DNA of 64,000 nucleotides from Minisyncoccota bacterium. GTDB lineage: Bacteria > Patescibacteriota > Minisyncoccia > Phycocordibacterales > JAQTLZ01. Below, piece after piece: positions 5,599-47,042 of the stretch. Within the stretch, counting starts at the first letter, position 1, and each line of letters opens with the position of its first letter. The notes beneath the pieces are model-generated. The model searched no databases. It had not been told where the DNA came from and worked only from the letters and a program-made list of their open reading frames with translations. Location: contig JAQTLZ010000002.1 in the NCBI GenBank assembly GCA_028714635.1, forward strand, positions 9,362 through 73,361, read 5' to 3'. The position numbers and the translations under genes are program-made.

Positions 5599-6750
5599 AT
5601 GAATAAGAAAATAATTATAGGAATTGTTCTCGTCCTACTTGTCACTCTAGGAATTGGGATCGCAAAGTACAATGCCGGTAGTAGAAACACTGCCGCATTG
5701 GAACTCTCAGGGACTATAAAAGTCGGAGCAGCGCTTGGTCTCACCGGTGAATGTGCAAACTACGGTGAGGGAGAACTCAAAGCCGCGCGACTCGCCATAG
5801 ATGAGGCAAATAAAAGCGGTGGAATCTTGGGAAGAAAACTCGAGCTCATCACAGAGGATACGCAATGTAGTCCGAAAGGTTCAGTGAATGCGATAAGAAA
5901 ACTCATTGACATCAACAAAGCAGAAGCCATCGTCGGACTCACCTTTGGCGATAGCTTCCAAGCAGGATACACAATAAACAATCCTGCGCACATTGTTGCA
6001 GTTTCTCCCTCGACAGCTCTCGAAGCTCTCGCGTACAACAACGCTTCGACTGACTACGTCTTCTCAACTTGGTTTTCCGAAAGAGACGAGATCCAAGCGC
6101 TCCAGAAACGAGCAAAAGAGATGAACATAAAGAAATTTGTGCTCTTCCATGATGAGGATGCATTTGCAAGCATGCTTTCATCACTCTGGAATACGTATGC
6201 GAAAGAGAACGGCCTAACGATTGTGAAGGAATACAAAGTTCCTGTCGGCTACGATGATTACCGAACAATCATCCTGAAAATGAAAGCAGATAACCCCGAG
6301 GGAATAGCTTTCTTCGCACAAACTCAAGCTACGCGAGCGAAGTTCATGAAAGAAGCTAAAGAACTTGGCCTTAATGCGCAGATCTTCCAAAGTGCGGACA
6401 TTGAATACCCATCACTCCTTGAAAACTTCGGGAGTGCGATGGAAGGAATAATCTACACCTTTCCCGAAGTAACGGGAGAGAGTAAATCATTCTTCGACCG
6501 TTTCAAAGCTTTCTACGGAGAGGATTCGGTTGGAGGAAGCGATGCAAACGCCTACGACGCCACTCGAGTAATCATTGCCACACTTACAGAGCATTACAAA
6601 AATGGCACTGATATGAAAACCGCGGTGGAGAAAACAAACATACCGGGTACAGCATTCAAAGAAATAAAATTCGATGAAGCTCACCAAGTCACTGGTTCGA
6701 AATACATAATCAAGACGGTGCGGGATGGAAAGTTCGTGGAGGTGAAGTAA
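5599..6750 (+). CDS. Periplasmic binding protein type 1 (Leu/Ile/Val-binding-like substrate-binding protein) with N-terminal TM or signal. No adjacent permease or ATPase.
   Basis: ALGLTGECANYGEGELKAARLAIDEANKSGGILGRKLELITEDTQ resembles LivJ/LivK-family proteins. Confidence 0.75.
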   Translation: MNKKIIIGIVLVLLVTLGIGIAKYNAGSRNTAALELSGTIKVGAALGLTGECANYGEGELKAARLAIDEANKSGGILGRKLELITEDTQCSPKGSVNAIRKLIDINKAEAIVGLTFGDSFQAGYTINNPAHIVAVSPSTALEALAYNNASTDYVFSTWFSERDEIQALQKRAKEMNIKKFVLFHDEDAFASMLSSLWNTYAKENGLTIVKEYKVPVGYDDYRTIILKMKADNPEGIAFFAQTQATRAKFMKEAKELGLNAQIFQSADIEYPSLLENFGSAMEGIIYTFPEVTGESKSFFDRFKAFYGEDSVGGSDANAYDATRVIIATLTEHYKNGTDMKTAVEKTNIPGTAFKEIKFDEAHQVTGSKYIIKTVRDGKFVEVK

Positions 6751-6782
6751 GACAAAACAAAAACACTAGCTTAACGCTAGTG

Positions 6783-6960
6783 TTTTTGTTTTTGTGCGGG
6801 ACGGAGATCGGTCGTTACACGACCAGTACCCCGATTGGATTTTTTATGCGCGCTCACGCGCTTTTAAAAATGCTCAATCGGGCTTCGATTCTCCCGTCAT
6901 GAAGCGCCCCGCGCTTCACTTCCCCACAAAATGAAAAAAGACCTTTCGGCCTTTTTTCAT
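6783..6960. repeat. tRNA-Gly-associated composite. It contains a direct duplicate of the tRNA-Gly 3' end (6795-6810), a conserved hairpin motif CGGTCGTTACACGACCAGTACCCCGATTGGATTTTT (6809-6845), an inverted T-arm-like fragment (6871-6895), a CCCC-loop hairpin (6901-6917) and the tRNA terminator (6934-6957).
   Basis: Sequence identity to the tRNA-Gly 3' end, and to motif copies at 13975-14013 and 14155-14176. Confidence 0.5.
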
Positions 6961-6964
6961 TTTG

Positions 6965-7035
6965 TGCGGGACGGGAGAATCGAACTCCCGCCAAGAGTTT
7001 GGAAAACTCCTATTCTACCATTAAACTAGTCCCGC
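6965..7035 (-). tRNA. tRNA-Gly (anticodon UCC), no encoded CCA
   Basis: Cloverleaf folds by hand: acceptor GCGGGAC/GTCCCGC, anticodon loop TTTCCAA, T-arm GGGAG-TTCGATT-CTCCC. Confidence 0.85.
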
Positions 7036-13185: not shown

Positions 13186-13959
13186 ATGGCAGTAAACGAA
13201 ACATTAAAAAAATTAGGACTCAATGACAAAGAGATAAAGATTTATCTCACCCTTCTTAAGCATGGGAAAACAAAACCATCCTCACTTTCGAGTTTGACGA
13301 AAATAAATCGTGCAACGGTCTACAACTTGGTAAACGGCTTGCTTTCAAAGGGGCTCATCGCCGAAGATCTCACGGGCAAAACCCTCTACCTCACTCCCCT
13401 CCCCCCGAAAAATCTGGAAAAAATTCTCGATCAGCAAAAAAGAGAACTGAAAGAAAGAGAAGCTCTCATCAAAAAAGCTATCGGCGAGTTGAGCATGATA
13501 ACACCAGCCAGCAATTATCCTGTTCCGAAAATTCAATTCGTGGAAGAAGGCAATCTTGAGAAATTTCTCTACGACAACATTCTCAAATGGCAGAAAAGCA
13601 TGTTCGAACATGATGCCACGTGGTGGGGCTTCCAAGATCATTCCCTTCTCTCAAACTATGAAGAGTATATTCATTTCACTTGGCAGACTTCCTATGGAAA
13701 ACATAAAGATTTCAAAGTAAAACTCTTGGGTAATTCCGCAAAAATTGAAGATAAAGTAGCGAGTAAATACTTAAAATCAAGACGTGATATTCGTTTTGTT
13801 GAAGGAATGAATTTCACATCCACTGTCTGGGTAATGGGAGATTATATAGCAATGGTAGCAACTGGCGCTCATCCATTCTATCTATTCGAGATTCACGACC
13901 AGACACTTGCTCATAATATGAGGGAGGTATTCAAAAAGCTTTGGGAAAAAACTCAATAA
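13186..13959 (+). CDS. TrmB family transcriptional regulator
   Basis: LGLNDKEIKIYLTLLKHGKTKPSSLS...RATVYNLVNGLLSKGLI. Confidence 0.75.
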   Translation: MAVNETLKKLGLNDKEIKIYLTLLKHGKTKPSSLSSLTKINRATVYNLVNGLLSKGLIAEDLTGKTLYLTPLPPKNLEKILDQQKRELKEREALIKKAIGELSMITPASNYPVPKIQFVEEGNLEKFLYDNILKWQKSMFEHDATWWGFQDHSLLSNYEEYIHFTWQTSYGKHKDFKVKLLGNSAKIEDKVASKYLKSRRDIRFVEGMNFTSTVWVMGDYIAMVATGAHPFYLFEIHDQTLAHNMREVFKKLWEKTQ

Positions 13960-13974
13960 TTATAGAGAATTTCG

Positions 13975-14278
13975 GTCGTTACACGACCAGTATCCTCGTT
14001 GGAGATTTTGTCTCGCTTTGCTCACAAAATCTACTCAACGAGGCTTCGAATCTCTGACGAAAGTGCTCCCCAGCACTTTCTCACCCAGCCACGTAAAAAA
14101 CCGCTCTCGCGGTTTTTTCTTGTCGGGGTGCAGAAAGTTTCGAAGCTTACAGCTTCAGTACCCCGATTGGATTTTTCTTCGAAAAATGCTCAGTCGGGTT
14201 TCGAATCTCTGACGAAAGTGCTCCCCAGCACTTTCTCACCCAGAGCAAGTAAAAAGCCGCATAAGCGGCTTTTTCTTG
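13975..14278. repeat. About 153-bp imperfect tandem units upstream of tRNA-Pro. Each unit carries the conserved hairpin motif or its GTACCCCGATTGGATTTTT half, a GTGCTCCCCAGCAC hairpin, a terminator hairpin and a duplicate of the tRNA-Pro 3' end (14115-14135).
   Basis: Direct repeats 14046-14090 versus 14199-14243 and 14115-14135 versus 14268-14290. Motif shared with 6809-6845. Confidence 0.5.
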
Positions 14279-14349
14279 TCGGGGTGCAGAGATTCGAACT
14301 CTGACTACATGATCCCAAATCATGGATGCTACCGTTACACCACACCCCG
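14279..14349 (-). tRNA. tRNA-Pro (anticodon UGG), no encoded CCA
   Basis: Acceptor CGGGGTG/CACCCCG, anticodon stem CATGA/TCATG with loop TTTGGGA, T-arm CAGAG-TTCGAAT-CTCTG. Confidence 0.85.
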
Positions 14350-14461
14350 GTATAAATATTTCTCCAAAAATCAACTCGAAAATCTTATCACAGGAATTTT
14401 AAAAATCCTAATTCTCTTGTCTATTTTTATTATAAAGGACATTATACTTTATAAAAGACAT

Positions 14462-14878
14462 CTAAAGGACAATATCATCTAGGAGCTTTACATTAGCGAT
14501 TTTCTTTTTCATATCCAAAAGAACAATCGCTACTAAAAATTCCCATTCTGGTTCATCGTCCTCATATTTCTCCAGAAGGTAGCTTTGTACTACCCTACCA
14601 AGTCTTTTAAGCTTCCATTCGTGTATATTTTCCTCGGGCCTATATTCATCCTCTGTTACACGTGGAACATTCTTAGGGTACGACAGATTGATTTCACGTG
14701 AAACGGTCTTTACTTCAACAAAATAGAGTTTTTTGTCCTTTTGAGCGACAATATCTATCTCTCCCCACCTCTTCAGATAGTTTCGACAGACAATTCTGTA
14801 TCCTTTTTTCTCGAGATACTTACAAGCAATATCCTCGCCTTTAATGCCTATTGGGTCTGCGAGATTAAGTCGTTTCAC
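14462..14878 (-). CDS. yraN: YraN family (UPF0102) endonuclease
   Basis: GEDIACKYLEKKGYRIVCRNY...GEIDIVAQKDKKLYFVEVKT. Confidence 0.8.
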   Translation of the reverse strand: MKRLNLADPIGIKGEDIACKYLEKKGYRIVCRNYLKRWGEIDIVAQKDKKLYFVEVKTVSREINLSYPKNVPRVTEDEYRPEENIHEWKLKRLGRVVQSYLLEKYEDDEPEWEFLVAIVLLDMKKKIANVKLLDDIVL

Positions 14879-15304: not shown

Positions 15305-15584
15305 ATATGTTACTTAAGAAACATTTTATGCTTATCGGACTGAAATTTTGTGTCTTTTTGCAATTTAACCATATTTATAGGCTTATTTTAGATAAAAGAC
15401 CGAAATTTTTCTGTTTTTTAAGGCTGTCTTTTATGCACACAATCCACAGACTTATCCACAGTTACACGTGAAATACCTATATTTTGAGCCATTTTGGTAT
15501 TTTAGGAATTCTGGGAAAAGGACAACTGGGTTCAGGGACAAAAAGTCGTTAGAGCCGTACTGATACAAAAATTATTACAAGCTG

Positions 15585-15655
15585 TGCGGGTAGCGAGAAT
15601 CGAACTCGCGCCTTAACATTGGCAATGTTACGTCCTACCACTAAACTATACCCGC
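15585..15655 (-). tRNA. tRNA-Gly (anticodon GCC), no encoded CCA
   Basis: Near-identical in layout to bacterial tRNA-Gly(GCC). Anticodon loop TTGCCAA, T-arm GCGAG-TTCGATT-CTCGC. Confidence 0.85.
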
Positions 15656-16330
15656 ATTATATTTTTCTTCTATCAAATCAGCGGCTATCAAATTCATCCA
15701 GAGCAGAATTTTTCGCTTTAAGTATGTACTAGAAACTCCAATACTGCAAACTCCGTGAGACAATTTTCTCGTCTTATGCTTGCCTTTTATTACAATACTT
15801 TTTGTAAAATCCTCCTGTTTTAGGCCCGTATTACTAATCCAGAATGTCTTGCATTCTTTTTCCTTCAGTTCGGGGTAGAGCAGAATCCAAGCCCTGATTT
15901 TAGGAGAAGAGAAACCGCAAATTTTCTTTAGAAAATCGAGAAATACTTTGATCATAAGAGGGTCGGAATTAGCTATAGAACACCTATTATTAGAGCGCTT
16001 ATTGCCTTCGCCCCAGTAAATCATCATTCCCGCCAGGAAAAGAGGGTGGTATTTGAGTTTTTCAAACTCTTCAGTTGCTTCATTTTCGGCTTCTTTGTAC
16101 AGTTTCTCGAGATTTTCACCTCGAATTTTATTCAATTCTTTGATCCTTATGGTCGATTTCCCTTGAGCATTCGAGGCTAAACGAAAAGCAATCTTATTAG
16201 ACCATTTTTGATCCCTGAACCACTCTGAGAGGGTACTCTTTGGAACTCTAATAAGACTTCTGATCTCATTATAGCTTTTGCCTTTAGCTCTAAGTGCGAA
16301 CACTTTTTCTTTGTCTTTTCTCATATACAT
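15641..16330 (-). CDS. HTH-containing protein with a degenerate LAGLIDADG-like motif (FLAGMMIYWGEGNK). Possible free-standing homing-endonuclease-like protein between two tRNA genes. Its 3' end overlaps tRNA-Gly(GCC) by about 15 nt.
   Basis: N-terminal resolvase-type HTH (KGKSYNEIRSLIRVPKSTLSEW). LAG..G motif and basic C-terminal region. Confidence 0.45.
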   Translation of the reverse strand: MYMRKDKEKVFALRAKGKSYNEIRSLIRVPKSTLSEWFRDQKWSNKIAFRLASNAQGKSTIRIKELNKIRGENLEKLYKEAENEATEEFEKLKYHPLFLAGMMIYWGEGNKRSNNRCSIANSDPLMIKVFLDFLKKICGFSSPKIRAWILLYPELKEKECKTFWISNTGLKQEDFTKSIVIKGKHKTRKLSHGVCSIGVSSTYLKRKILLWMNLIAADLIEEKYNAGIV

Positions 16331-16401
16331 TTAAAGTATATCACGGGAGTTCGATTTCTTGGTGTGGATAATTTATCAAATTTACCGTATGATGAGACGA
16401 C

Positions 16402-16473
16402 GCGCCCATAGTGAAATGGATATCACACCGGTCTTCGGAACCGTTATTGGGGGTTCGAATCCCTCTGGGCGCA
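16402..16473 (+). tRNA. tRNA-Arg (anticodon UCG), no encoded CCA
   Basis: Acceptor GCGCCCA/TGGGCGC, D-stem GTGA/TCAC, anticodon loop CTTCGGA, T-arm GGGGG-TTCGAAT-CCCTC. Isotype call is moderately certain. Confidence 0.75.
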
Positions 16474-16484
16474 CAAAAAGGCGT

Positions 16485-18011
16485 ATGAAACTCCTTCACA
16501 ACCAACATTTTGAGATCCCAAAAGAGATCATGAATGTACTAGAGACGCTCGAAAAGAGCGGTTTTGAGGCATATATCGTTGGTGGATGTGTACGTGGGCT
16601 TCTTACTGGCTTTAAACCTCGCGATTGGGACGTCACCACAAACGCTACTCCGGAAGAAATCATAAAGCTATTTCCAAAAACATTTTACGAAAATACGTAC
16701 GGCACCGTCGGCGTAGTGAATGAAGATGTCTCTACTCGAACAGAAGAGGGGATTCCTGATGAGACGTTGCGTGTGGTAGAAGTCACACCGTACCGCCTCG
16801 AGTCAACTTATTCTGACAACAGACGACCTGATGCTGTTACGTTCAGCAAAAATATTGAAGATGATTTAAAGCGAAGAGATTTCACCATAAACGCGATCGC
16901 GCTTTCTGTAAAAAAAGTTGGAACGAAACTTGAAGAAAAAATTATTGACCCGCACGGAGGAATTGCGGATATCGAAAAGAAAATATTGCGAACGGTAGGG
17001 AAGAGCGAAGATAGATTTGGAGAAGATGCGCTCCGCATTCTTCGGGCTATTCGCATTTCCACAGAGACAGATTTTGCGATCGAAAAAGAAACTGAAATGG
17101 GAATTCGAAAATACGCTCCGCTTCTCGCGAAAATTTCTAAAGAAAGGATCCGTGATGAGTTCGTAAAAATACTGATGTCCAAAGAGCCGATGAAGGGCAT
17201 AATTATGGCTCAAAATATGGGTATTTTGAAATATATCGTTCCAGAGCTTGAGGTGGGAATCGGAGTTGCACAAAACCAAGCCCACGCATTTGATGTCTGG
17301 ACGCATCTTCTCAAATCACTCCAACACGCAGCAGATAAAAATTGGTCTCTTGAAATTCGTCTTTCTGCACTCCTTCATGACATTGGAAAACCGGAAAGCA
17401 AACGCCAGCCGGCAGATAAAAAAGATCCGACATTCTACGGCCACGAAGTGATCGGTGCTCGCATGACAAAAAAGATCCTTGAAAATCTTAAGTTCTCAAA
17501 TAAAATAATTGAGAAGGTGACACTTCTTGTACGATGGCATATGTTTTTCTCCGACACGGAACAGATAACACTTTCTGCTGTGCGAAGAATGGTTGCCAAT
17601 GTTGGCAAAGAAAATATTTGGGATCTTATGAATGTTCGCGCTTGCGACAGGATTGGAACAGGAAGACCGAAAGAAAGTCCATACCGGCTTCGAAAATATA
17701 AATCAATGATCGAGGAAGCGATGCGAGATCCGATCTCTGTCACGATGCTCAAGATTGATGGAAATAAAATTATTGAAGTGACGAAAACACCTGCAGGGCC
17801 AAAAGTAGGCTTTATTCTCCATGCTTTGCTTGAAGAAGTACTTGATGATCCTAAGCTCAATACAGAGGAATATCTGGAGGAAAAGGCTCAAAAACTCATT
17901 ACTTTGTCAGAGGAGGAATTGAAAAAACTCGGGAAACTCGGCGTTGCAAAAAAAGAAGCTCTCGAAGAGAAGGAGAAGGAAGAAATACGCAAAAAGCATT
18001 GGGTGAAATAG
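16485..18011 (+). CDS. cca: CCA-adding tRNA nucleotidyltransferase with HD domain. The ORF-track start at 16359 runs through tRNA-Arg; the true start is taken as ATG 16485.
   Basis: Pol-beta NTase motifs GGCVRGLL..RDWD and the head/neck domain; HD motif LHDIGKP. Confidence 0.85.
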   Translation: MKLLHNQHFEIPKEIMNVLETLEKSGFEAYIVGGCVRGLLTGFKPRDWDVTTNATPEEIIKLFPKTFYENTYGTVGVVNEDVSTRTEEGIPDETLRVVEVTPYRLESTYSDNRRPDAVTFSKNIEDDLKRRDFTINAIALSVKKVGTKLEEKIIDPHGGIADIEKKILRTVGKSEDRFGEDALRILRAIRISTETDFAIEKETEMGIRKYAPLLAKISKERIRDEFVKILMSKEPMKGIIMAQNMGILKYIVPELEVGIGVAQNQAHAFDVWTHLLKSLQHAADKNWSLEIRLSALLHDIGKPESKRQPADKKDPTFYGHEVIGARMTKKILENLKFSNKIIEKVTLLVRWHMFFSDTEQITLSAVRRMVANVGKENIWDLMNVRACDRIGTGRPKESPYRLRKYKSMIEEAMRDPISVTMLKIDGNKIIEVTKTPAGPKVGFILHALLEEVLDDPKLNTEEYLEEKAQKLITLSEEELKKLGKLGVAKKEALEEKEKEEIRKKHWVK

Positions 18012-19231: not shown

Positions 19232-20185
19232 CTAGTTTCGTTTCTTATCATGAAACTGCTTGTGAATGTCGTGGAGATGTTTGTCTGTCATATGCGTATA
19301 GATCTGTGTCGTACTTATGTTTGAATGCCCAAGAAGCATCTGCACAGAGCGCAGATCAGCCCCATTTTGCAATAAGTCAGTGGCGAAGCTGTGGCGCAAG
19401 CTGTGCGGGGTGACTTTTTTCGAGACTCCGGCCTTGATCGCATAGTGTTTCACCAAACGCTCTACTGAACGCGAAGAAAGCTGCATTCCTTTATTTTTTC
19501 TATCGATTTTCCCGAATCCTCGCTCTTCTATTTGGGTGAAAAGGGAATCGTCCATATCTTTTCGCTTTTTCAAATACTTTTGAAGCATTTCTTTTGCAGT
19601 TTTTGAGAGAAATACTACTCGAACCTTCTCACCTTTCCCCCGGACAGAGAATTCGTCTCGGCTAATGTCCAAATCCCGAGGAAGTTTACAAAGTTCTGAT
19701 ACTCGAAGGCCGGTGGAGAAAAGCATCTCAAGAATGGCTCGGTCACGGAGCTGTTTGAGACTATCGCCCTCTGCCGCTTTAAGGACGCGAGAGAGTTCTT
19801 CAGAAGAAATGGTATCGATCGAGCGCTCTGGCACCTTTGCAAGCTCAATCCTGTCCGGCGAGAGGGAAGGAATGCCTCGGTAGACTAAATATTTGAGAAA
19901 TGAGCGAAGAGCGATGAGATAATAATTCTGGGTTTTCTTTTTGAGCGTATCGGAATCACCGCGAGTCGGTTTTGCACTCTGGCGATTGAGCCAAAGCCGG
20001 AATTCCCGGACAGCGGAATCCGTGATATCGGTTGGTTTTTTGAGTTTCGAATACTGAAGAAAGCGAGTTAAGTAGCGCTCATAGTTTTCAACGGTTTTTT
20101 TGCTTCGTCCCTTGTCAATTTCAACGTATTGGAGAAATTCCTTTTTGAGTTCATCTAAATTCGCCATTATTTTATTATACACCAC
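19232..20185 (-). CDS. Tyrosine site-specific recombinase (XerC/XerD family)
   Basis: HSLRHSFATDLLQNGADLRSVQMLLGHSNISTTQIYTH catalytic box. N-terminal SAM-like domain. Confidence 0.85.
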   Translation of the reverse strand: MVYNKIMANLDELKKEFLQYVEIDKGRSKKTVENYERYLTRFLQYSKLKKPTDITDSAVREFRLWLNRQSAKPTRGDSDTLKKKTQNYYLIALRSFLKYLVYRGIPSLSPDRIELAKVPERSIDTISSEELSRVLKAAEGDSLKQLRDRAILEMLFSTGLRVSELCKLPRDLDISRDEFSVRGKGEKVRVVFLSKTAKEMLQKYLKKRKDMDDSLFTQIEERGFGKIDRKNKGMQLSSRSVERLVKHYAIKAGVSKKVTPHSLRHSFATDLLQNGADLRSVQMLLGHSNISTTQIYTHMTDKHLHDIHKQFHDKKRN

Positions 20186-33352: not shown

Positions 33353-34366
33353 GTGCTATACAAACAAGCAATGAACCGACCAAGCAACAAAATTATTATT
33401 CTCCTCGTAATTGCAATCCTTGTTGTTGGCGGTGCTTTCTTTTTTAAAAATTTTGACTGGACTAAAATTCGCAATCCATTCGCTTCTAAAACGGAAACTC
33501 AAAATCAAAACCTCCAAGTCCTGGCTGAAAATGAAATAAATAAAGATAGCGACCAGGACGGGCTCAAGGATTGGGAAGAAAAACTTTGGAAAACGGATCC
33601 CAGTAGTTCTGACACCGACAAAGACGGAACTTCTGACGGGGAAGAAGTGAAAGAGGGAAGAGATCCGAAATTAGCAGGACCGAATGATAAAATTTCGAAA
33701 GATGCGGCTATTCAAAAAATTATCCAAAGCTCCGAAACAGAAAATCTCAATCCAACCGAAAAACTCTCAAGAGAATTTCTTGCGCAATATTTAGGAACGA
33801 ATCCGTCAGGAGGAACTCTCACTGATGCGGAAAAAAATGCGCTCATCGGTAACTTAACAGCAGAGAGTATTACTCCATTTACCTACAAGCGTCACAGCGC
33901 ATCTGAACTCAAAGTACTTCCGGATGGAAGCGCAGAGACAATCAGAGCTTACGGAAATATTCTTGGAAAAATTATCGTTCTGAATACCAAAATAAAATTG
34001 GAAAGCGAAACGACAATACTCCAATCAGCTCTCGCGGGAGAGGACAAAGAAAAACTAAAAGAGCTCGACCCAATCATCGCTCGGTATACCACAATAGTAA
34101 GTCAGGGAATGAAAATATCCGTTCCGCCGACAGCCGCAGAACTTCATATTCATTTTATGAACGCCTTGACTGATTTGGCAGAGTCCGCGAGCAGGATGAA
34201 AGTCGTTTTTGAAGATCCTTTGACCACTTTGAAGAGTCTTTCGGCTTATTCCGAAGCAGAAACCGAGCTCACGACGTCAATCGCCGACCTTCAGGACTAT
34301 TTCTCAAAAAATGGCGTAGTTTTCAACAAAAACGAGTACGGTTATACCTTTCGTCCCACACAGTAA
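33353..34366 (+). CDS. Membrane-anchored exported protein with DxDxDG calcium-binding-like repeats (thrombospondin type-3-like). First gene of the T4SS-like cluster.
   Basis: N-terminal TM helix, then DSDQDGLKDWEE..DTDKDGTSDGEE. Confidence 0.45.
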   Translation: MLYKQAMNRPSNKIIILLVIAILVVGGAFFFKNFDWTKIRNPFASKTETQNQNLQVLAENEINKDSDQDGLKDWEEKLWKTDPSSSDTDKDGTSDGEEVKEGRDPKLAGPNDKISKDAAIQKIIQSSETENLNPTEKLSREFLAQYLGTNPSGGTLTDAEKNALIGNLTAESITPFTYKRHSASELKVLPDGSAETIRAYGNILGKIIVLNTKIKLESETTILQSALAGEDKEKLKELDPIIARYTTIVSQGMKISVPPTAAELHIHFMNALTDLAESASRMKVVFEDPLTTLKSLSAYSEAETELTTSIADLQDYFSKNGVVFNKNEYGYTFRPTQ

Positions 34367-34402
34367 GCACGTATAATTAAGTATGATGGTCTTCTTTTAT
34401 TC

Positions 34403-36790
34403 ATGAGAGACTCGATCAAAAAATTTCTTGCATTTACACTCTGTTTTGGGGCAATTTTCTTTGTGACGGGTTGTCTCGTTAAAGAGGTTTATGCTGATCC
34501 AGTCATAGCGATTCCTGCTAATTTTTCTTACGTTAATGTCCCTATGTGGGACAAAGGAAAACACACACTCCCGAACGGAGTAACCTATGAGGTATACAGT
34601 GGTTGTAATCATACAAGTGATGACCTCTACGGGATCTGCGGTGGTCATAACGTTATTCGAGACCTTTCAACAGGTAAATATTATGATGTTCCTAGACTTG
34701 GAACGGCCCCAGGAAGAGAAGTAGACACCCCAGAAGGTGCACCTTCAGCTCCAATTGTTGATACGAGCAACGATGCCCCAGCGCCACCACCTCCAGAGGA
34801 CAATGGTCCAGTAGACTGTTCCAGCGGTGAATGTGTCGTGTCTCCGACAAATACGAATTCGGGTTTTTCTAATACACCTCCTAATGCGGGTTTGGTGGAT
34901 AATGCGCAACAGCAAGCTCTAGAAGCCCAAATAGCTACTGCACAAGCAGAGCAAGATCTTACAGATGCGAGTAGCAAGTTAAATTACTTTCACGACCAAT
35001 ATCCTTACATTTTTGATGCCGACGGGGGCATCCAAGCAGCCGATGTCATTCAAGCAAATGAAGACATCGCCAATTACAATAGATACAATGGGACTAATAT
35101 ACCGCCCCTTTCTGCAGAATCATACGACTCGATCAGACAGCAAGATCAAGATTTTCTGAATGAATTCACTACTGCGCGCCAGAATTATGAAGCTGCATTA
35201 GATTACCAGGCAACAGCAGAACAAAACTTCAATAGCCTTGATGATTACGCGCAACCAGATTCAGCTTCGGGATCTTCCGGCTCTGGAATAACAGCTGCTG
35301 GAGGAGTAGCGGGACTTTTGACGGGATCGACAGGAACAGCAGATCCGATCGTCCAACCAATAGTCCAGCAGGGGAATGTGGAATCAGGTAAGCAAAAGGG
35401 AACAGCGGTGCCAGTCACCAACGACATTCTCGAAAAAGCTGCAGTTGGTACACACGCAAATACAACTGCTCAAGTCAAGAAAGATTTCACCCTCGACGGC
35501 ATCGCAAAAATGATCGCTGAAAGAATGGTGCATCAGATCGCTACGAGCATCGTGCAGTGGATAAATACAGGTTTCAAAGGCGCGCCCGCATTCGTGACCG
35601 ATCTCAAAGGATTTATGGAAAAAGTCGGAGATGATGTTACAGCGACCTTTATCACCAAAAGCGGGCTCCTCCAGACACCTTACGGGCCACTCATAGCCCA
35701 AGCTATCATCGGCGCGCGTACAGGAAATTTCAACCTTCAGCCAGTGTTTACAAGCGCTCTCGCGCAGGGACAAGGAGTAGTAAATCAATTTCTTGGAGGA
35801 GATTTTTATGCCGGAGGCTTGCAAGGATTCTATGACGTTTCTCAAAATTGCAATAATTACCAATGCGCAACACTGGCAGCGATAAACAGAAACAACGTAT
35901 TAGTGCAGGAAGAAGAGCACCGCAAAGAACTCGAGTATTTGGCTGGACAAGGTTTTAAGCCAAAAACAGTGTGCGATGGAAGCAAAGGTTCTCCGTGTGA
36001 CCACCAAAGCGTCGTCACTCCCGGAAGCATTCTCCGTGAAAACCTAAATCAAGCTCTTGGAAGCGATCTTATCACTCTTGAAAATGTCCACGACATCAAT
36101 GAGATTATCGGCGCTCTTATGGGCCAGCTCATAAATATGGTGACAACCAGTTCTGGAGGCTTGAGTGGAACAAGTGCGCCAACGAGAAGCAAGGTAAATA
36201 AAAACGGAACCATTTCTCAAGTTTCGTTCCTTGCTGATTTGAATAGCGGAGTAGATATCGTCACCCTCGCTCAAGCAAAAGGGCCCACTCTTGCCTTGAT
36301 TGATGAAAATCTCACAAAAGCAAAAAATCCAAACCGATTAACCCTCTTTACCGGGGCACTCGCTAAGGTGAATGAAGCGGAAAACCTCATTGGGCAGGTG
36401 AAAATCTGTTACGAAGACAAGCTCGATCCTTCATTCGATCCGCCGCTTTCAGACAGTGATAAAAATCTTGCGGGAGGAAGAATCGACTCAGCGGATACCG
36501 TTCTTTCAACTCTCATAGCACCGGTGAAAACTGCTCTCGCACATGAAATTTCGATAGTGAATACGAAAGCAAACGCTCTGCAAAAAATCCGAAACGCTCT
36601 CACAGCAGCGACTACCGTAGCAGACGCGAACACAATAATAAATACCTACAAATCCCAATATGTAAACACCGGAAATACGCTCGAGGAAGATATCCAGTCT
36701 CTGACAGGCCAAGTTGGCACAATCGAAGGTGATGCGCAGACGCAACTGGATGAGTGTGAGGCATTGGAGGGAGTCCAGAATAATCCTTAA
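34403..36790 (+). CDS. Large secreted protein (795 aa), signal peptide, Gly/Ser-rich linker, no recognisable catalytic motif
   Basis: Signal peptide MRDSIKKFLAFTLCFGAIFFVTG and a long ORF. Confidence 0.5.
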   Translation: MRDSIKKFLAFTLCFGAIFFVTGCLVKEVYADPVIAIPANFSYVNVPMWDKGKHTLPNGVTYEVYSGCNHTSDDLYGICGGHNVIRDLSTGKYYDVPRLGTAPGREVDTPEGAPSAPIVDTSNDAPAPPPPEDNGPVDCSSGECVVSPTNTNSGFSNTPPNAGLVDNAQQQALEAQIATAQAEQDLTDASSKLNYFHDQYPYIFDADGGIQAADVIQANEDIANYNRYNGTNIPPLSAESYDSIRQQDQDFLNEFTTARQNYEAALDYQATAEQNFNSLDDYAQPDSASGSSGSGITAAGGVAGLLTGSTGTADPIVQPIVQQGNVESGKQKGTAVPVTNDILEKAAVGTHANTTAQVKKDFTLDGIAKMIAERMVHQIATSIVQWINTGFKGAPAFVTDLKGFMEKVGDDVTATFITKSGLLQTPYGPLIAQAIIGARTGNFNLQPVFTSALAQGQGVVNQFLGGDFYAGGLQGFYDVSQNCNNYQCATLAAINRNNVLVQEEEHRKELEYLAGQGFKPKTVCDGSKGSPCDHQSVVTPGSILRENLNQALGSDLITLENVHDINEIIGALMGQLINMVTTSSGGLSGTSAPTRSKVNKNGTISQVSFLADLNSGVDIVTLAQAKGPTLALIDENLTKAKNPNRLTLFTGALAKVNEAENLIGQVKICYEDKLDPSFDPPLSDSDKNLAGGRIDSADTVLSTLIAPVKTALAHEISIVNTKANALQKIRNALTAATTVADANTIINTYKSQYVNTGNTLEEDIQSLTGQVGTIEGDAQTQLDECEALEGVQNNP

Positions 36791-36825
36791 CGTATAATAG
36801 AGAAGAATCGATTAAAATTTATCAA

Positions 36826-39800
36826 ATGTTCGATAGAAAAAAACAAATTCAAAAAGGAGAAGTGCTGGGACAGAAACAAAAAAATTTACTCCCGGCTTCT
36901 AAAGAGACGAGAAAAGTTTTCTCATTGATGACTATTCTATTAGTAATAGGAATAGGAATAATTTTCCCCTTAGGAGCAAGCGTCAAGGCAGACACAGTAC
37001 AAATAGGTGGGCATACGATAGAATTCAATTACAATTCAATCGGAGGTAGTTCCGCACCCTTCGATCCAAATGATCTTAATGGGCCTTATGTAGTAAACGG
37101 ACAAACGTATTTTGTCTACCAAGCTACTAAATACCGCATAACGGGCAATACAGCTGTACCAGTTGATACTGGAGACAGTACTTTTTCTCAGTCAGCCGCG
37201 CAACTTTTTGGAGCACAGATACCTTTTATAGGAAGCGGTACAGCCCAAACACTGACCCACACGGGTTGGATAAATGTTATTCAGGATGGTTTAAATGCAG
37301 AACTTGCAGCAACAAGGAAAAAATTAGCTGCCGACCAGGCAGCGGGCGATACGGTAGCCGTTAATGAAGACCAACAAAAAATAGCAGCCATAAATAGTGA
37401 CATAAAGGAAGCTGCGGGAACTGTAAACATGAACAGTGGCCAGGCCGCTCAAGCAACGGCAGATTCGAATCGGCTTATGGGTGATGTAAGCTGCACATGG
37501 AATAGTAAATTTAGTTTGGTTGCGTGTCTTAATATCGCAGCGCTCTGGGTGGGAAATCTGATCCTTAGCCTCGCCGCGCTCTTTCTCTTCATTGTAAGCA
37601 TTCTCTTTGACTACATAATCTCCGGTACAGTAGCCGGAATGGGAGGAATCATCCAGAGGGTAGGCACTATAGCAGTTGCTTGGAGAGCGGCTCGGGATAT
37701 CGCGAACGCATTTTTCATATTTATCCTTCTTTATCTCGCAATCGCTACAATTTTGGACCTTGGAGTAGAGACGAAAAAACAGGTGATACGAGTGATAGTG
37801 ATGGCGCTCCTTATCAATTTCAGTCTCTTCTTTACTAGTGTGATGATAGACGCCTCGAACCTCATCGCCACCGGTTTTTATAATGCCACACTCAAGATAG
37901 CGAAAGACACCGCTCCTCCGCCGAACGCAGGACTGACGTCAGGAATAATCGACCCAGGCTCGCGCACAGGAAGCATTTCATCTGTATTTTTAAATGCGAT
38001 GGCTCTTCAGGGAATTTATAATTACAATTCTCCGACTATTAAAAGCGGGTTAGTGGAAAGCGCCAACACAGCAGATCCGAGAAAAGAAAACGTAGGAATT
38101 CCAGACCGAATAAGCAATACCGCAGTCGCCGAAAGTAGTGGCAACAAGATTTCATTCAGCAGAATCCTCGTCACCACCATTTTCGGCACGATGGTAATGT
38201 TTACCACCGCTCTTGTATTGCTTGCTTCTATTTCACTCTTCGGAGCACGAGTGGCAACGCTTCTTGTTTGTATGGTTTTTTCTCCTATCGCATTTGCCCT
38301 TATGGCAGTTCCAGGAGATAAATACTCAGAAAAACTCTACTGGGGCAAACTGGTACCGCAACTGCTCTTTGCTCCCGTCTATATGCTATTCCTTTTTCTC
38401 ACCATACAAATTGTGAGGAGTCTCCCGCCAGGAAGTTTCTCTGCTTCAAACGATGCAAATCTCAGCAGTGAACTCGGCGCGATATTCGCAATCTTCTACA
38501 ATTATATAATCGTCAACACCCTCATTATGACCACTCTTGTCTCGGCAAATGAGATTGGAATCGAGGGAGCAAGTGCGGCAATGGAGTGGGTGCAAAAAGG
38601 GAAGGGCGCGCTCCAGAGCGTTGTGGGGAGAAATACAATCGGCTGGTGGGCACGAGGTCTTGATGAGAAATGGGCGAATACAAATGCTCCACGAGGATTT
38701 AACTGGCTTGTTGGAGGTCAAGGAATTGTCGGCTCCAAGATTCGAGGTTCGACTACCGGCTTTTTGAAAGATGCTAAATTCGGCGGAGAGAAAAGCGCTG
38801 AAGATGTTTACCACGAGGAACATGTTCTTAGGTCTGCTCAAGAGAGCAACAGAAAGAAAGACGCAGTGATCGCGGGATTAAGAAAGGGGGACAAAGACGC
38901 TGTGGAACAGGCTTGGGGCAAACTTTCCGGTTCAGAGAAGATAGAAATGCTTAAAACTAATAAGGGGCTCTTCAATCATCGCGATATGGAAATGATCGGT
39001 GAAGCAAGTACTGACCAAGATATAGAGTCAATTGATAAAAGCGACGATTTAACCCAGCAGGAAAAGGATGAATTGAAACACGGAAAATTCGACCGTCAAA
39101 TTGCTATTTCGAAATTATACAAAAATGAGCTGGATAAATACGAGGAAGCATTCTCGAACGGAGGCAGATATAACGTTGTGGACAAAAACGGAAAAGAGAC
39201 CGGAGAAGTCGTCGATTTCAGCGCGGTAAGAGGTGCGGCCAGAAATGAACTTTACGCCCAAAACATGTTAAGTATGAGAAAATGGGATAAGAAATTGGCG
39301 ACCGATATACAAAAGAGGAAGGGTCTCTCGATCAAACATATGCATCAAATCGCACCGGATCTCTTCACCGATAACAAAGACGGAAGAATTACTGAAAACA
39401 TCGACCATGGGCCGATTGAAGACGCGAGAAGGCTGGGATTCTTGAGTGTTGCAGCTGAAAGAAAATTGCGACTGGCAAAAGGAACCGCAGCTATGGACGC
39501 GACAGCTATGGCGTACGGAATTGATGTTTCGAAAAAAGACTGGAGAGAAAAAGGCATTGAAGAGAGAGGAAAACTCCTAGACGCTGTGGGCGAACACTAT
39601 GTCTATGGAGGTGAAGACGCGATGGGTGAATATTTGAGACTGCAGAGTGGTAGTTTAACCCAAGCAGAGAGAGACGAATACGCTAGGCTTCATCATGGGG
39701 ATCAAGATTATATGGCAGCCGGCGAGGAAAGATACAGGCGATGGATGAGCGGTAAAGGACCTCACGAATTCTGGCTGAACAGAGGCGCTGTCAGAAATAG

Positions 39801-40290
39801 CTCAATTCAGCGAAAGTATGCAGCGCAAGGTATTATCTCTGAAGGATTCCGAGCTGACGACGTGGATAAGGATGGTCTTATGGCGGAAAAGATGGCACGA
39901 TATACTGCGAATGCGGCCGGAAACATCACGGATGATTTTGAGCATAACGATGGACCAATCTCCGAAGCTGACGCTACCGCTATGGATTACTGGCTCAATA
40001 ACAGAGTTGGCAAAGAATGGAGAGACAATCGACTGGGACTCAAAGTGAAAAGGGATAGGGGCGGGGTATTTACAAGTGTGGACATTATGCATCCTGAAAC
40101 GATCGTGGAAAGGGCACAGATTGCATACAACTTAAATGGACCTGACGGCAATATCAGAGCAAGAAAGTATGTTACCGATGATATAAAATGGAGGGCACGA
40201 AGAACCACCGCTATGGAAGACGCCGCAGCAAGAGGAGTTCCATTTGTTCCCAACCCTGGAGATCCGAGACCTGATCCAAGAACCTATTAA
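36826..40290 (+). CDS. Giant polytopic membrane protein (1154 aa), VirB6/TrbL-like in architecture. N-terminal exported domain, about 8 TM helices in the central region, and a roughly 550-aa cytoplasmic C-terminal extension.
   Basis: Hydrophobicity pattern of the translation and its position next to a VirB4-like ATPase. Confidence 0.45.
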   Translation: MFDRKKQIQKGEVLGQKQKNLLPASKETRKVFSLMTILLVIGIGIIFPLGASVKADTVQIGGHTIEFNYNSIGGSSAPFDPNDLNGPYVVNGQTYFVYQATKYRITGNTAVPVDTGDSTFSQSAAQLFGAQIPFIGSGTAQTLTHTGWINVIQDGLNAELAATRKKLAADQAAGDTVAVNEDQQKIAAINSDIKEAAGTVNMNSGQAAQATADSNRLMGDVSCTWNSKFSLVACLNIAALWVGNLILSLAALFLFIVSILFDYIISGTVAGMGGIIQRVGTIAVAWRAARDIANAFFIFILLYLAIATILDLGVETKKQVIRVIVMALLINFSLFFTSVMIDASNLIATGFYNATLKIAKDTAPPPNAGLTSGIIDPGSRTGSISSVFLNAMALQGIYNYNSPTIKSGLVESANTADPRKENVGIPDRISNTAVAESSGNKISFSRILVTTIFGTMVMFTTALVLLASISLFGARVATLLVCMVFSPIAFALMAVPGDKYSEKLYWGKLVPQLLFAPVYMLFLFLTIQIVRSLPPGSFSASNDANLSSELGAIFAIFYNYIIVNTLIMTTLVSANEIGIEGASAAMEWVQKGKGALQSVVGRNTIGWWARGLDEKWANTNAPRGFNWLVGGQGIVGSKIRGSTTGFLKDAKFGGEKSAEDVYHEEHVLRSAQESNRKKDAVIAGLRKGDKDAVEQAWGKLSGSEKIEMLKTNKGLFNHRDMEMIGEASTDQDIESIDKSDDLTQQEKDELKHGKFDRQIAISKLYKNELDKYEEAFSNGGRYNVVDKNGKETGEVVDFSAVRGAARNELYAQNMLSMRKWDKKLATDIQKRKGLSIKHMHQIAPDLFTDNKDGRITENIDHGPIEDARRLGFLSVAAERKLRLAKGTAAMDATAMAYGIDVSKKDWREKGIEERGKLLDAVGEHYVYGGEDAMGEYLRLQSGSLTQAERDEYARLHHGDQDYMAAGEERYRRWMSGKGPHEFWLNRGAVRNSSIQRKYAAQGIISEGFRADDVDKDGLMAEKMARYTANAAGNITDDFEHNDGPISEADATAMDYWLNNRVGKEWRDNRLGLKVKRDRGGVFTSVDIMHPETIVERAQIAYNLNGPDGNIRARKYVTDDIKWRARRTTAMEDAAARGVPFVPNPGDPRPDPRTY

Positions 40291-40299
40291 GCAAATACT

Positions 40300-41046
40300 A
40301 TGATTATCTATCTAGACCACCAAATCGACGCTTTGGCCGAAATAACCAAAGACAATACAGTAACTAAAGTCGCTTTTAAAGATACTGATTGGGTTTCTGT
40401 CATCCGGGAGATTGGAGTAAAGAATGATCTGAATTTGAGCCAACTTGGAGTGATATACGATCTCATTAACCAGATCATTCTTGGCCAGTTAAATGCCGGC
40501 GACTTCACAGGAAAACTAAAAAAAATAGCGAAGGATGAGGATTGGGATGAGCTCGACGACGGAAAAATCTCTTCAGTTGTGTCTGCACTGAATGAGAAAA
40601 TTTTCCTCCCTATCCGAGACGCGATGAGGAAATTGAGCGGAACAAAACAAGAAGAAGATGTCTCGGCTCTAAAAAAAGAAGACGTGCTTCACGGAATCGA
40701 AAATCCAGTAAAGACAGCTCACTTATTGTCAGTCGAAAAAACACCGGTTCCTCCTGCGGTGATCAAACTCACTCCCGCAACACCAACACCCGCAGTAACG
40801 CCCTCTCAACCGCCCGTGCCAACCCCGCAACCACCTCAACCAACTCCACCGCCAATTGTTAAGCCAACTTCCATCGAAATAAAACCTCATATGGACATTA
40901 TGGAAGCAAAACTTTCAAGTGCTGTGAAAATGCCTGTCACCGAAGTAAAAGTGGCCGAAAAACCCCCGGTAACTCCCGCACCACCTCGACCTGCTGCACC
41001 CACAAAATACACAACTGATCCTTATCGAGAACCGCCAAAAGCTTAA
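40300..41046 (+). CDS. Hypothetical protein with Pro/Thr-rich C-terminal half
   Basis: ORF within the cluster. Confidence 0.4.
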   Translation: MIIYLDHQIDALAEITKDNTVTKVAFKDTDWVSVIREIGVKNDLNLSQLGVIYDLINQIILGQLNAGDFTGKLKKIAKDEDWDELDDGKISSVVSALNEKIFLPIRDAMRKLSGTKQEEDVSALKKEDVLHGIENPVKTAHLLSVEKTPVPPAVIKLTPATPTPAVTPSQPPVPTPQPPQPTPPPIVKPTSIEIKPHMDIMEAKLSSAVKMPVTEVKVAEKPPVTPAPPRPAAPTKYTTDPYREPPKA

Positions 41047-41058
41047 AAACGAACAACT

Positions 41059-41511
41059 ATGCAATTCCAAGTCCCTCAATTCATCGAAATAGAAGACAAA
41101 GTTTTCGGGCCTCTTACCGTCAAACAATTTCTCTATCTTGCCGGAGGAGCCGGGTTTTCGTATCTTCTATATGCTTTTCTGCCTTCTTACATATCTTATG
41201 CTCTCATGTTGCTTGTCGCTGGTTTTTCACTCGCTCTCGCTTTCTACAAAGTGAACGAAAAGCCTTTTATCCTTATTGTCGAAGCCGCTTTTAATTATCT
41301 TTTCAGCAAAAAACTCTACATCTGGAAAAGACAGGACAAAAAAATCGAAAAGAAGGAGGAAGTTGAAACCTCACAGCCGACACTTCGGGTTCCTAAACTC
41401 TCTGATAGCAAGCTAAGCGATCTCTCTTGGAGCCTTGATATAAACGAGAGGGAAAAGGGTACCATCTATTCAAAAGAGACAAAAACACTCGGAAGAAGAG
41501 AAGATCGCTGA
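41059..41511 (+). CDS. Small two-TM membrane protein, VirB3/PrgI/TcpE-like candidate
   Basis: VFGPLTVKQFLYLAGGAGFSYLLYAF...LMLLVAGFSLALAFY. It sits directly upstream of the VirB4-like genes, as VirB3/ConD homologs do. Confidence 0.4.
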   Translation: MQFQVPQFIEIEDKVFGPLTVKQFLYLAGGAGFSYLLYAFLPSYISYALMLLVAGFSLALAFYKVNEKPFILIVEAAFNYLFSKKLYIWKRQDKKIEKKEEVETSQPTLRVPKLSDSKLSDLSWSLDINEREKGTIYSKETKTLGRREDR

Positions 41512-41574
41512 TATTTAGCTGAAAAACAGATTTATCCGTTGTAACGAGTGACTTCGCCGTCTATAATGTAACCT

Positions 41575-42216: not shown

Positions 42217-42228
42217 TTTCAAAATAGT

Positions 42229-44052: not shown

Positions 44053-44081
44053 TCACTAAGTCCTATCTCACCCCACTCAAG

Positions 44082-46062: not shown

Positions 46063-46148
46063 AATGAATCCCGTTAGAAGCAACCCATATTTACAAATCA
46101 TGCCTAATCCAAACATTTACCAAATAATCGAAGCTAGCTTCTAACGGG

Positions 46149-47015: not shown

Positions 47016-47042
47016 AAACGGTTTTTTGCTGTTAAAAGAAAA

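Follow-up and report, generated by a model that had tools for sequence, protein, structure and literature searches.

What are the repeated sequences that lie directly behind the proline tRNA gene, tRNA-Pro(TGG), in a 64,000-nucleotide (nt) stretch of contig JAQTLZ010000002.1 from a Minisyncoccota bacterium (assembly GCA_028714635.1; Patescibacteriota)? The initial annotation of this stretch, hereafter called the window, described the region as two imperfect tandem units of 153 bp, each with a copy of the tRNA-Pro 3' end and a GC hairpin plus T-run, and regarded them as traces of a genomic island serially inserted at the tRNA 3' end and since deprived of its cargo, with a repeated regulatory RNA module as the alternative. 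The analysis presented here indicates that the units belong to a large, apparently undescribed family of ~125-nt non-coding structured elements located directly after tRNA genes in Patescibacteria, which contain, besides the direct copy of the tRNA 3' end, an internal inverted copy that had been overlooked. Whether such elements move or act as RNAs is the question pursued below; the chances appear about even that they are small, protein-less mobile elements, and the regulatory RNA module remains a live rival.

The tRNA-Pro(TGG) gene (14279-14349, minus strand; ARAGORN, and Rfam tRNA with 61.4 bits; CCA not encoded) gives the locus its direction, and the units lie 3' of it only when the minus strand is read, a point that the initial annotation missed. 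On that strand, to which the tRNA, hairpins and units all belong, the order is tRNA-Pro, spacer hairpin H1, unit A, spacer hairpin H2, unit B and then the stop codon of a TrmB-family gene that converges on the array (13186-13959; Pfam PF01978, E 2.5e-14). H1 (14246-14278, CAAGAAAAAGCCGC-TTAT-GCGGCTTTTTACTTG) is an inverted repeat which by its sequence looks like a bidirectional terminator, and its palindrome extends into the tRNA 3' end on one side and into the left arm of unit A on the other. H2, likewise an inverted repeat (14090-14122, CAAGAAAAAACCGC-GAGA-GCGGTTTTTTACGTG), differs from H1 by stem changes that are compensated.

Unit A (14123-14245), delimited by sequence, fold, hidden Markov model (HMM) and family covariation, comprises an acceptor-complement arm (14237-14245), the dinucleotide AG (14235-14236), a hairpin P2 with a GGGG loop (14215-14234), the triplet CGT (14212-14214), the complement of the T-stem 3' strand and T-loop (14200-14211), hairpin P4 (14162-14198), the motif GTACT (14157-14161), hairpin P5 (14142-14156) and a copy of the tRNA-Pro 3' end, CGAAACTTTCTGCACCCCGA (14123-14142). 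The sequence copied corresponds to the last 20 nt of tRNA-Pro (14279-14298), from T-loop to discriminator. Unit B (13964-14089; sequence, fold and HMM) repeats the left arm and P2 of unit A without a change (14045-14089); these are followed by P4 (13994-14043), P5 (GGTCGTTACACGACC, 13974-13988) and a right-hand tRNA copy decayed to CGAAATTCTCT (13964-13974); its core represents a sub-lineage different from that of unit A, with the nearest cores found in other organisms. As first described, the GGTCGTTACACGACC hairpin follows a TrmB-like gene: it begins 15 nt past the stop codon of the TrmB-family gene mentioned above.

A repeat finder revealed two imperfect direct repeats, of 62 nt (14027-14088 and 14182-14243, 87% identical) and 45 nt (14090-14134 and 14246-14290, 84% identical), which supports the tandem arrangement and sets its period at 155-156 nt rather than the 153 bp first given; the 22-mer GAAAGTGCTCCCCAGCACTTTC occurs exactly twice, with none expected from shuffled sequences. 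Tandem Repeats Finder reports no array here because the middle ~50 nt of units A and B differ. Each unit was originally thought to end in a tRNA-Pro 3' copy; however, the second TTTTCTTGTCGGGGTGCAGA (14271-14290) is the genuine tRNA-Pro 3' end with its trailer, which leaves a single full extra copy (14123-14142 region) and a decayed remnant (13964-13973). The palindromes AAAAAGCCGC and GCGGCTTTTT, with their AAAAA-GC-stem-TTTTT arrangement, do occur in each unit (14095-14118 and 14251-14274), but "terminator" describes a resemblance: the consensus terminator scan makes no call here, since the T-run pairs with the A-run inside the stem. The junction from unit B to unit A was also found in an independent assembly (L127, GCA_028711105.1; loci are designated here by L numbers), and thus the tandem is not an artefact of the source assembly; two short-read assemblies end within the repeat. 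The open reading frames (ORFs) listed across the repeats (13999-14304, 14018-14212, 14147-14374) overlap the tRNA, have no Pfam match and are not conserved at orthologous loci, in agreement with their original dismissal as artefacts.

All units follow one plan. Each opens with the reverse complement of the acceptor 3' strand of its tRNA, then come AG, a variable hairpin (P2), CGT and the reverse complement of the T-stem 3' strand with the T-loop; a conserved two-hairpin core follows (TCGAAGCC..TGAG..CCAA..GGGTACTG-hairpin-CGA), and the unit closes with a direct copy of the last ~22 nt of the tRNA, spanning T-loop, T-stem 3' strand, acceptor 3' strand and discriminator. In the tRNA-Pro units, CTGGGTG complements the acceptor 3' strand CACCCCG with one mismatch, P2 is an 8-bp hairpin with its GGGG loop between AG and CGT, and CAGAGATTCGAA matches the reverse complement of T-loop and T-stem 3' strand (TTCGAATCTCTG) at every position. 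P4 is a long hairpin (CCCGAcTG AG ... C CAATCGGG) followed by GTACT, and P5 a 6-bp hairpin with a GTA loop, after which CGA runs into the tRNA 3'-end copy.

Comparison with 6783-6960, suggested in the initial annotation, disclosed a third unit (6795-6926, minus strand; sequence, alignment, fold and HMM), customised to tRNA-Gly(TCC) (6965-7035, minus strand; ARAGORN and Rfam), a feature not remarked upon before. Between tRNA and unit lies a spacer hairpin with a 17-bp A/T-rich stem and a GAAA loop (6927-6964, minus strand, from sequence). Here CGGGAGAATCGAA is the exact reverse complement of TTCGATTCTCCCG in the tRNA, and the right end CTCCGTCCCGCA (6795-6809) copies the tRNA-Gly 3' end; the core is common to the tRNA-Pro units, with the arms rewritten for tRNA-Gly. 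Past the tRNA 3' copy there is a second long A/T-rich hairpin (6753-6794, minus strand) which, by analogy with filled and empty sites elsewhere, is probably the original terminator-like hairpin of tRNA-Gly(TCC). Units are present at two of the four tRNA genes of the window. ARAGORN and Rfam called no tRNA within 13964-14245 or 6795-6926, only the four true tRNAs in the window and no tmRNA there; the P2 loops have 3-5 nt and are not the 7-nt anticodon loop of a tRNA.

The minus strand of these units is predicted to fold into a structure closed by an acceptor-like stem, with P2 and with P4 and P5 carried on a T-stem-like helix. Predicted energies are -44 kcal/mol for unit A (z -3.5 against shuffles), -49.9 kcal/mol for unit B (z -4.5) and -55.6 kcal/mol for the tRNA-Gly(TCC) unit (z -4.4). 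RNAalifold, applied to an alignment of 117 sequences (A2), recovered P2, the outer part of P4 and P5, with double changes in 13 of 18 pairs. Paired cells reached 93.5%, as compared with 73.5% in the shuffled control, double-change cells 399 as compared with 109, and the covariation score 0.529, as compared with 0.159 for shuffled and at most 0.113 for slid controls. At one P4 pair, 54 sequences have G-U, 53 have G-C and none has A-C, and the two well-aligned helices contain 74 G-U/U-G pairs versus 9 A-C/C-A pairs; therefore the tRNA-sense strand is the folding strand, either as RNA or as single-stranded DNA (ssDNA).

The extent of the family was estimated by scanning a metagenome collection with the core pattern TCGAA-N-CC-N4-TGAG...CCAA-N3-GG-N-TACTG, plus hairpin and CGA, with tRNA-matched arms flanking it. 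This pattern, checked beforehand on four known copies and fitted by all three window copies, matched at least 120 further loci; the family counts rest on at least 120 loci among the matches listed, and 115 units among these had at least 200 nt of upstream DNA. A same-strand tRNA ends within 115 nt before the core in 76 of the 115, another 12 have one at 116-330 nt (arrays or other inserts), and an opposite-strand tRNA was found in none. Altogether 31 anticodons and 16 amino acids are represented by the tRNAs next to units. An HMM built without the window sequences matches exactly the three window units (E-values of 5e-19 for the tRNA-Gly unit, 2e-15 for unit B and 1.8e-14 for unit A) and nothing else in the 64 kb. 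A scan of a genome collection, with a pattern having six N between TACTG and GTAA as against five in the window copies, matched only L001, a unit behind tRNA-Ser in a Nomurabacteria metagenome-assembled genome. Rfam 15 contains no family that matches the units, whether those of the window or those at 34 related loci; tRNA alone reaches its gathering threshold in the window, and the best sub-threshold matches in 13700-14600 have E-values of at least 0.5. In viral contigs one pattern gave zero matches and the other two chance matches within coding sequence, a blastn search of phage and plasmid collections gave no match to the units, and a literature search found no description of the element family.

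Several variations on the common arrangement were encountered. Copies without an intact tRNA exist which keep only a decayed 3'-end-like 30-mer, as do three copies 2 kb apart in L006. In L055, L073 and L121 a conserved promoter-like sequence, TTGAAA-16-TACAAT, directly precedes units lacking an upstream tRNA; in L073 (303-384) a tRNA comes after the stand-alone unit, and by Rfam the sequence upstream of stand-alone units is neither a tmRNA nor an RNase P 3' end. The minus strand of L022 carries three to four tandem P4-P5 cores without full arms between a tRNA-Ile(GAT) and the listed unit, followed by a complete T-arm plus acceptor 3' strand assignable to no detected tRNA; this tRNA-Ile lies downstream of a 16S rRNA gene, which places the array inside an apparent rRNA-operon spacer. 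Unrelated cores occupy the same slot, from T-loop complement to tRNA 3' copy, in L037 (~100-240), L063 (~735-870), L048 (after its unit), L026/L103, L123/L008 and L089. They include the types ...GGTGCCCAGACAAAAC..GTTTTAGTCGAGGGAGA and ...GACGCAAGCCGGGGCCC... and a G-rich GGGGAGGGGGTCGGGGAACGGGAG... type, and are at times arranged in tandem with the core described above; the arms may form a generic framework in which one core can replace another. LOOT RNA (RF03000) occurs on two unit-bearing contigs, in L059 (8169-8288) and L076 (2891-3019), not adjacent to the units.

The relation between arms and neighbouring tRNA holds throughout the family. At 76 loci the direct repeat of the tRNA 3' segment at the right end of the unit has a median length of 22 nt and 97% identity, a duplication that bears out the proposed insertion at the tRNA 3' end; it starts in the T-loop and ends from 0 to more than 25 nt past the tRNA, sometimes into the trailer, and its alignment score is 36, as compared with 14 for units paired with tRNAs of other loci. 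In most units the 12-nt left T-arm complements the upstream tRNA without a mismatch, and it fits this tRNA better than the unit's own right end at 47 loci, equally well at 27 and worse at 2; the right-hand copy often has one or two extra bases in its T-loop part. The 9-nt acceptor-complement arm matches in at least 8 of 9 positions in 43% of units and in 1% of controls, is degenerate in ~40% of units, and covers the discriminator and the next base, plus CCA where encoded (L064). In L038 (Leu-CAA) and L065 (Leu-TAA), P4 is ~97% identical while arms, P2 and spacer are wholly different, each matched to its tRNA. The palindrome of the spacer hairpin usually continues into the arms, and ~40% of the inspected spacers have, instead of a terminator-like hairpin, a GAACGAAGTGA-type motif. 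This GAGCGAAGCGAAAC or GAACGAAGTGA-type motif also recurs at the tip of P4, examples being window 14011-14024, L014, L030, L031 and L020, and it forms the centres of both palindromes.

Three candidate origins were rejected. Copying of a mature tRNA, in the style of a retroviral primer-binding site, is ruled out by the arm, which runs into the gene trailer and not into CCA; an intron-bearing or permuted tRNA by the absence of an anticodon arm; and a hammerhead or other known ribozyme by the lack of an Rfam match and by different junction sequences.

Two syntenic relatives, L129 and L130, were located through a 227-amino-acid helix-turn-helix (HTH) protein with 79% and 66% identity, respectively; both have the order CCA-adding enzyme, HTH protein, tRNA-Gly(GCC), (NUDIX), UPF0102, tRNA-Pro. 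Synteny through the TrmB homologues is not conserved and yielded no orthologous tRNA-Pro locus. Comparison of orthologous loci, as the initial annotation had proposed, showed that presence varies: of the three genomes only L130 has a unit at tRNA-Gly(GCC), the site being empty in the window and L129. Beyond the right-hand repeat of this unit the flank of L130 continues with AGC..., the sequence that comes straight after the tRNA at the empty sites. The number of units at tRNA-Pro differs as well, with two in the window, one in L129 and, in L130, one accompanied by a badly decayed second; the arms track the tRNA-Pro of each genome (CACCCCGA, TACTCCGA, CGCCCCGA). An identical arrangement in the relatives together with a conserved ORF, looked for at these loci as evidence against insertion, was not found. 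In both arrays, those of the window and L130, the distal unit is the more decayed, as would be expected from the serial insertion first envisaged.

The cores have a history of their own. How similar they are does not depend on tRNA type (median 0.726 within a type, 0.722 between types), those of units A and B are ~70% identical, and the three window cores are not mutual closest relatives, each being nearest to cores in other organisms at other tRNAs; the distal core of the window (CCTCGTTG type) resembles the proximal core of L130. A one-base hint as to the origin of the repeats comes from L130, where the right-hand copy has the T-loop base of the relatives' tRNA-Gly and the working tRNA has another base. 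Besides its unit, L129 has a 45-nt second copy of the tRNA-Pro 5' part (6483-6530), 27 nt upstream of the intact tRNA-Pro; the copy stops in the anticodon loop and has the appearance of a scar left when a separate rearrangement or integration took place at that loop.

The elements, of ~125-160 nt including the spacer hairpin, are located immediately 3' of the tRNA and in its orientation, and are bounded by a direct repeat of its last ~22 nt, with an inverted copy inside that is split by P2. We favour, without holding it to be more than an evenly balanced proposition, the reading that units A and B and the tRNA-Gly(TCC) unit are copies of a small, protein-less, non-autonomous element that inserts serially at tRNA 3' ends in Patescibacteria. 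A circle or rod of ~150 nt, made up of tRNA 3' copy, spacer, inverted arm and core, would recombine with the tRNA gene at the start of the T-loop; the element would supply a functional tRNA 3' end together with the terminator-like hairpin, and the original 3' end would be displaced to the right-hand border and decay there. The working 3' end and the complementary arm, both being borne by the element, would thus match perfectly, and the decay of the right-hand copy would be explained by its being the displaced original. In a single-stranded intermediate, either ssDNA or a read-through transcript, the inverted arm would pair with the tRNA 3' copy and rebuild a 20-bp helix resembling acceptor and T-stem, a replica of the target capped by the core, and a trans-acting enzyme would recognise the folded element. 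Repeated insertion beside the tRNA would push older copies outward, giving the tandem of A then B, and the arms might be kept matched to the tRNA by selection or by palindrome-templated correction across the spacer hairpin.

Such an element would have partial parallels among known mobile systems. The layout is reminiscent of the folded attC sites of integrons and of attP(+) of CTX phage, one of the integrative mobile elements exploiting Xer (IMEX), in which inverted segments on one strand fold into a mimic of a double-stranded target, with structure conserved over sequence, extra-helical branches and one active strand; the strand asymmetry of the units would fit this comparison, and their left arm and tRNA 3' copy would rebuild the last 20 bp of the tRNA gene as the counterpart of that duplex. 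The target, however, is a tRNA gene and not attI or dif, no IntI is present, and the whole element measures ~150 nt. Miniature inverted-repeat transposable elements (MITEs), doublets of repetitive extragenic palindromes (REPINs) and palindrome-associated transposable elements (PATEs, derived from IS200/IS605) are likewise short, non-coding, hairpin-forming, multi-copy and intergenic, and are mobilised in trans, as the units would be if they move. In contrast to these, the terminal repeats of the units are copied from each target tRNA instead of being constant, their insertion would be strictly at tRNA 3' ends and in one orientation, and no cognate REP-associated tyrosine transposase (RAYT) or TnpA was found in the window.

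A number of observations weigh against mobility. Neither an excised form nor a within-species pair of filled and empty sites was seen, and the filled/empty comparison spans genomes that share only 66-79% identity in the neighbouring protein. No recombinase, transposase or reverse transcriptase is enriched within 3.5 kb of the units at ~120 loci, and the only recombinase in the 64-kb window is one Xer-like tyrosine recombinase (19235-20167), ~5 kb away. The presence of a unit at tRNA-Pro in all three relatives also fits vertical inheritance of a useful RNA, and strong covariation with frequent G-U pairs is a hallmark of functional RNA. Successive tRNA 3' copies in L056 differ in the T-stem, which simple serial insertion does not predict, and the combination of identical left arm and P2 with different cores in units A and B needs gene conversion or modular recombination. 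Finally, we know of no transposition chemistry that would account for arms re-matched to each new tRNA.

Some of these points lead to the alternative that the unit is a functional tRNA-linked non-coding RNA (ncRNA), a mimic of the acceptor/T minihelix with the acceptor stem and discriminator of its neighbour and with the conserved two-hairpin module attached, a possibility to be taken seriously even if we consider it rather unlikely. Transcription would reach it by read-through or, in stand-alone copies, start at a promoter of the unit itself, and the RNA would influence, or compete for, minihelix-reading enzymes (RNase P, RNase Z, the CCA-adding enzyme, aminoacyl-tRNA synthetases); alternatively, it might modulate folding or maturation of the tRNA through competing pairings of the left arm with the tRNA 3' end or with the right arm. 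Selection and gene conversion would then keep the arms in step with the tRNA. The strong covariation in P2, P4 and P5, the restriction of G-U pairs to the tRNA-sense orientation together with the invariable orientation of units as the tRNA, and a predicted fold that closes with an acceptor-like stem (z -3.5 to -4.5) are all in accord with this explanation, as are the retention of a unit at tRNA-Pro in three related genomes and the TTGAAA-16-TACAAT sequence before the stand-alone copies in L055, L073 and L121. Moreover, since ~40% of the inspected spacers lack a terminator-like hairpin, co-transcription must occur in those units. Behind a spacer that terminates efficiently, on the other hand, the unit would rarely be transcribed, and a transcribed left arm would endanger the folding of the tRNA itself. 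The fit of the left arm, better to the upstream tRNA than to its own right end, is the wrong way round for a self-contained tRNA-like fold, and an acceptor arm degenerate in ~40% of units is also difficult to reconcile with a minihelix mimic. A functional RNA would hardly be expected to show so patchy a distribution, with two of four window tRNAs having a unit and the tRNA-Gly(GCC) site filled in L130 but empty in the window and L129, nor to occur in tandem and decayed copies.

Known tRNA-like ncRNAs, such as the Y RNA YrlA, the tRNA-like domain of tmRNA, viral 3' structures and mascRNA, resemble the units in that an acceptor-like closing stem is stacked on a T-stem-like helix and modules foreign to tRNA take the place of the D and anticodon arms. 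They differ from the units, in which the T-loop is paired instead of free and the acceptor and T sequences change with the neighbouring tRNA, and which are multi-copy, patchy and without an Rfam match.

A bolder form of the mobile-element reading, which we put forward tentatively and regard as improbable, would make the units a new class of protein-less, guide-carrying mobile element. A single-stranded rod of ~150 nt, RNA or ssDNA, with a stem that replicates the last 20 bp of a tRNA gene, would home to tRNA genes of any identity, use the new target as the template for rewriting its arms, for instance through template switching across the spacer hairpin, and regenerate the interrupted tRNA 3' end. 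The bridge RNA of IS110, the exon- and intron-binding sites (EBS/IBS) of group II introns and the guides of IS608 share with the units a complementarity to the flanking insertion DNA that changes with the target. Unlike these systems, and unlike retron ncRNA, the units have no cognate recombinase or reverse transcriptase adjacent to them in the window or enriched in the ~120 loci; their complementary segment, 12 + 9 nt, corresponds to the 20 bp also represented in the direct copy and not to a pair of half-sites, and their architecture, without an Rfam match, is unlike that of the RNAs concerned.

The explanation offered initially, that the units are attL/attR scars of integrase-driven islands or prophages serially integrated at tRNA-Pro with loss of the cargo, is now very improbable. 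Sublocation classes of tRNA-targeting integrative elements were reportedly described by Williams in 2002. P4-type islands with tyrosine integrases and prophages insert, like the units, in the 3' part of a tRNA gene, produce a direct repeat from T-loop to 3' end, leave the tRNA intact with a displaced second 3' end at the far border, and form tandem arrays by serial insertion; their classical signature, a direct repeat of the tRNA 3' end that begins in the T-loop, is present here, and one tyrosine recombinase gene lies 5 kb away. The insert, however, contains no integrase or any other gene and measures 125-160 nt instead of kilobases, and one core serves 31 anticodons, whereas integrases are specific for one tRNA. 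The reading is contradicted above all because the core is conserved family-wide: random deletion scars would not share a core of ~85 nt with compensatory changes at no fewer than 120 tRNA loci. The covarying hairpins and the internal inverted copy of the tRNA end are not found in such islands, the latter not being a feature of scars; no integrase fragments were found beside the units; and the phage, plasmid and viral sequences searched held no match. What was taken for the remains of an island is itself the conserved unit of ~125 nt.

Hardly credible, finally, is a purely local tandem duplication of the terminator region by slippage, or a coding role of the repeats in the listed ORFs: the 62-nt and 45-nt blocks are nearly identical between A and B, unequal crossing-over between the flanking 20-nt repeats could add copies, and slippage may contribute to changes in copy number, but the ~70% identical cores are each closer to units of other organisms, a third copy with different arms lies at another tRNA, and the ORFs, without Pfam match and overlapping the tRNA, are not conserved at orthologous loci.

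A consensus scan gave a promoter-like pattern match, TAGACA-16-TAAAAT (14396-14423, minus strand), ~47 nt upstream of tRNA-Pro; the neighbours of the window units are TrmB, UPF0102 and NUDIX genes, with no integrase remnant adjacent, the window encodes no transposase, and the ORF clusters within 3.5 kb of units across the family comprise housekeeping genes only. The 227-amino-acid Patescibacteria protein with an N-terminal HTH that served to find the relatives is encoded at 15644-16330 (minus strand), overlapping the 5' side of tRNA-Gly(GCC) (15584-15655). In the window, L028, L064, L084, L056, L129 and L130 its gene immediately precedes a co-oriented tRNA gene, with two tandem copies in L064, and many of its homologues are found alone on ~1-kb contigs, as repeated or mobile genes are. 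The protein itself has no informative Pfam or PDB sequence match; some homologues have precomputed Pfam matches to HTH_23/HTH_28, and its middle motif HPLFLAGMMIYWGEG is one that we take to be reminiscent of LAGLIDADG endonucleases.

The ORF of the CCA-adding enzyme (16359-18011, plus strand) has a listed TTG start inside or before tRNA-Arg (16402-16474), and its real start is probably the ATG near 16497; all four tRNA genes of the window lack an encoded CCA, which fits a dependence on this enzyme. Further along, 33371-48308 holds genes for a PrgI-like protein, a TraG/VirB4-like ATPase and a type IV secretion pilin, together with several very large proteins without a Pfam match, and the chromosomal origin region (rnpA, yidC, dnaA, dnaN) is located at 48.8-53.2 kb.

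Units of this kind explain assembly breaks and spurious ORF calls beside tRNA genes in Patescibacteria genomes, and their signature of sequence and structure could seed a new RNA family. If they are functional RNAs, they would constitute widespread tRNA-specific minihelix mimics, with a bearing on tRNA maturation and control in reduced genomes. If they are mobile, they would be the smallest tRNA-targeting elements known to us and the first in which the target-recognition segment is rewritten for each tRNA; in the Patescibacteria, a very large group about which little is understood, this would point to an integration chemistry so far unrecognised, or to a host enzyme able to recognise a mimic of the tRNA minihelix.

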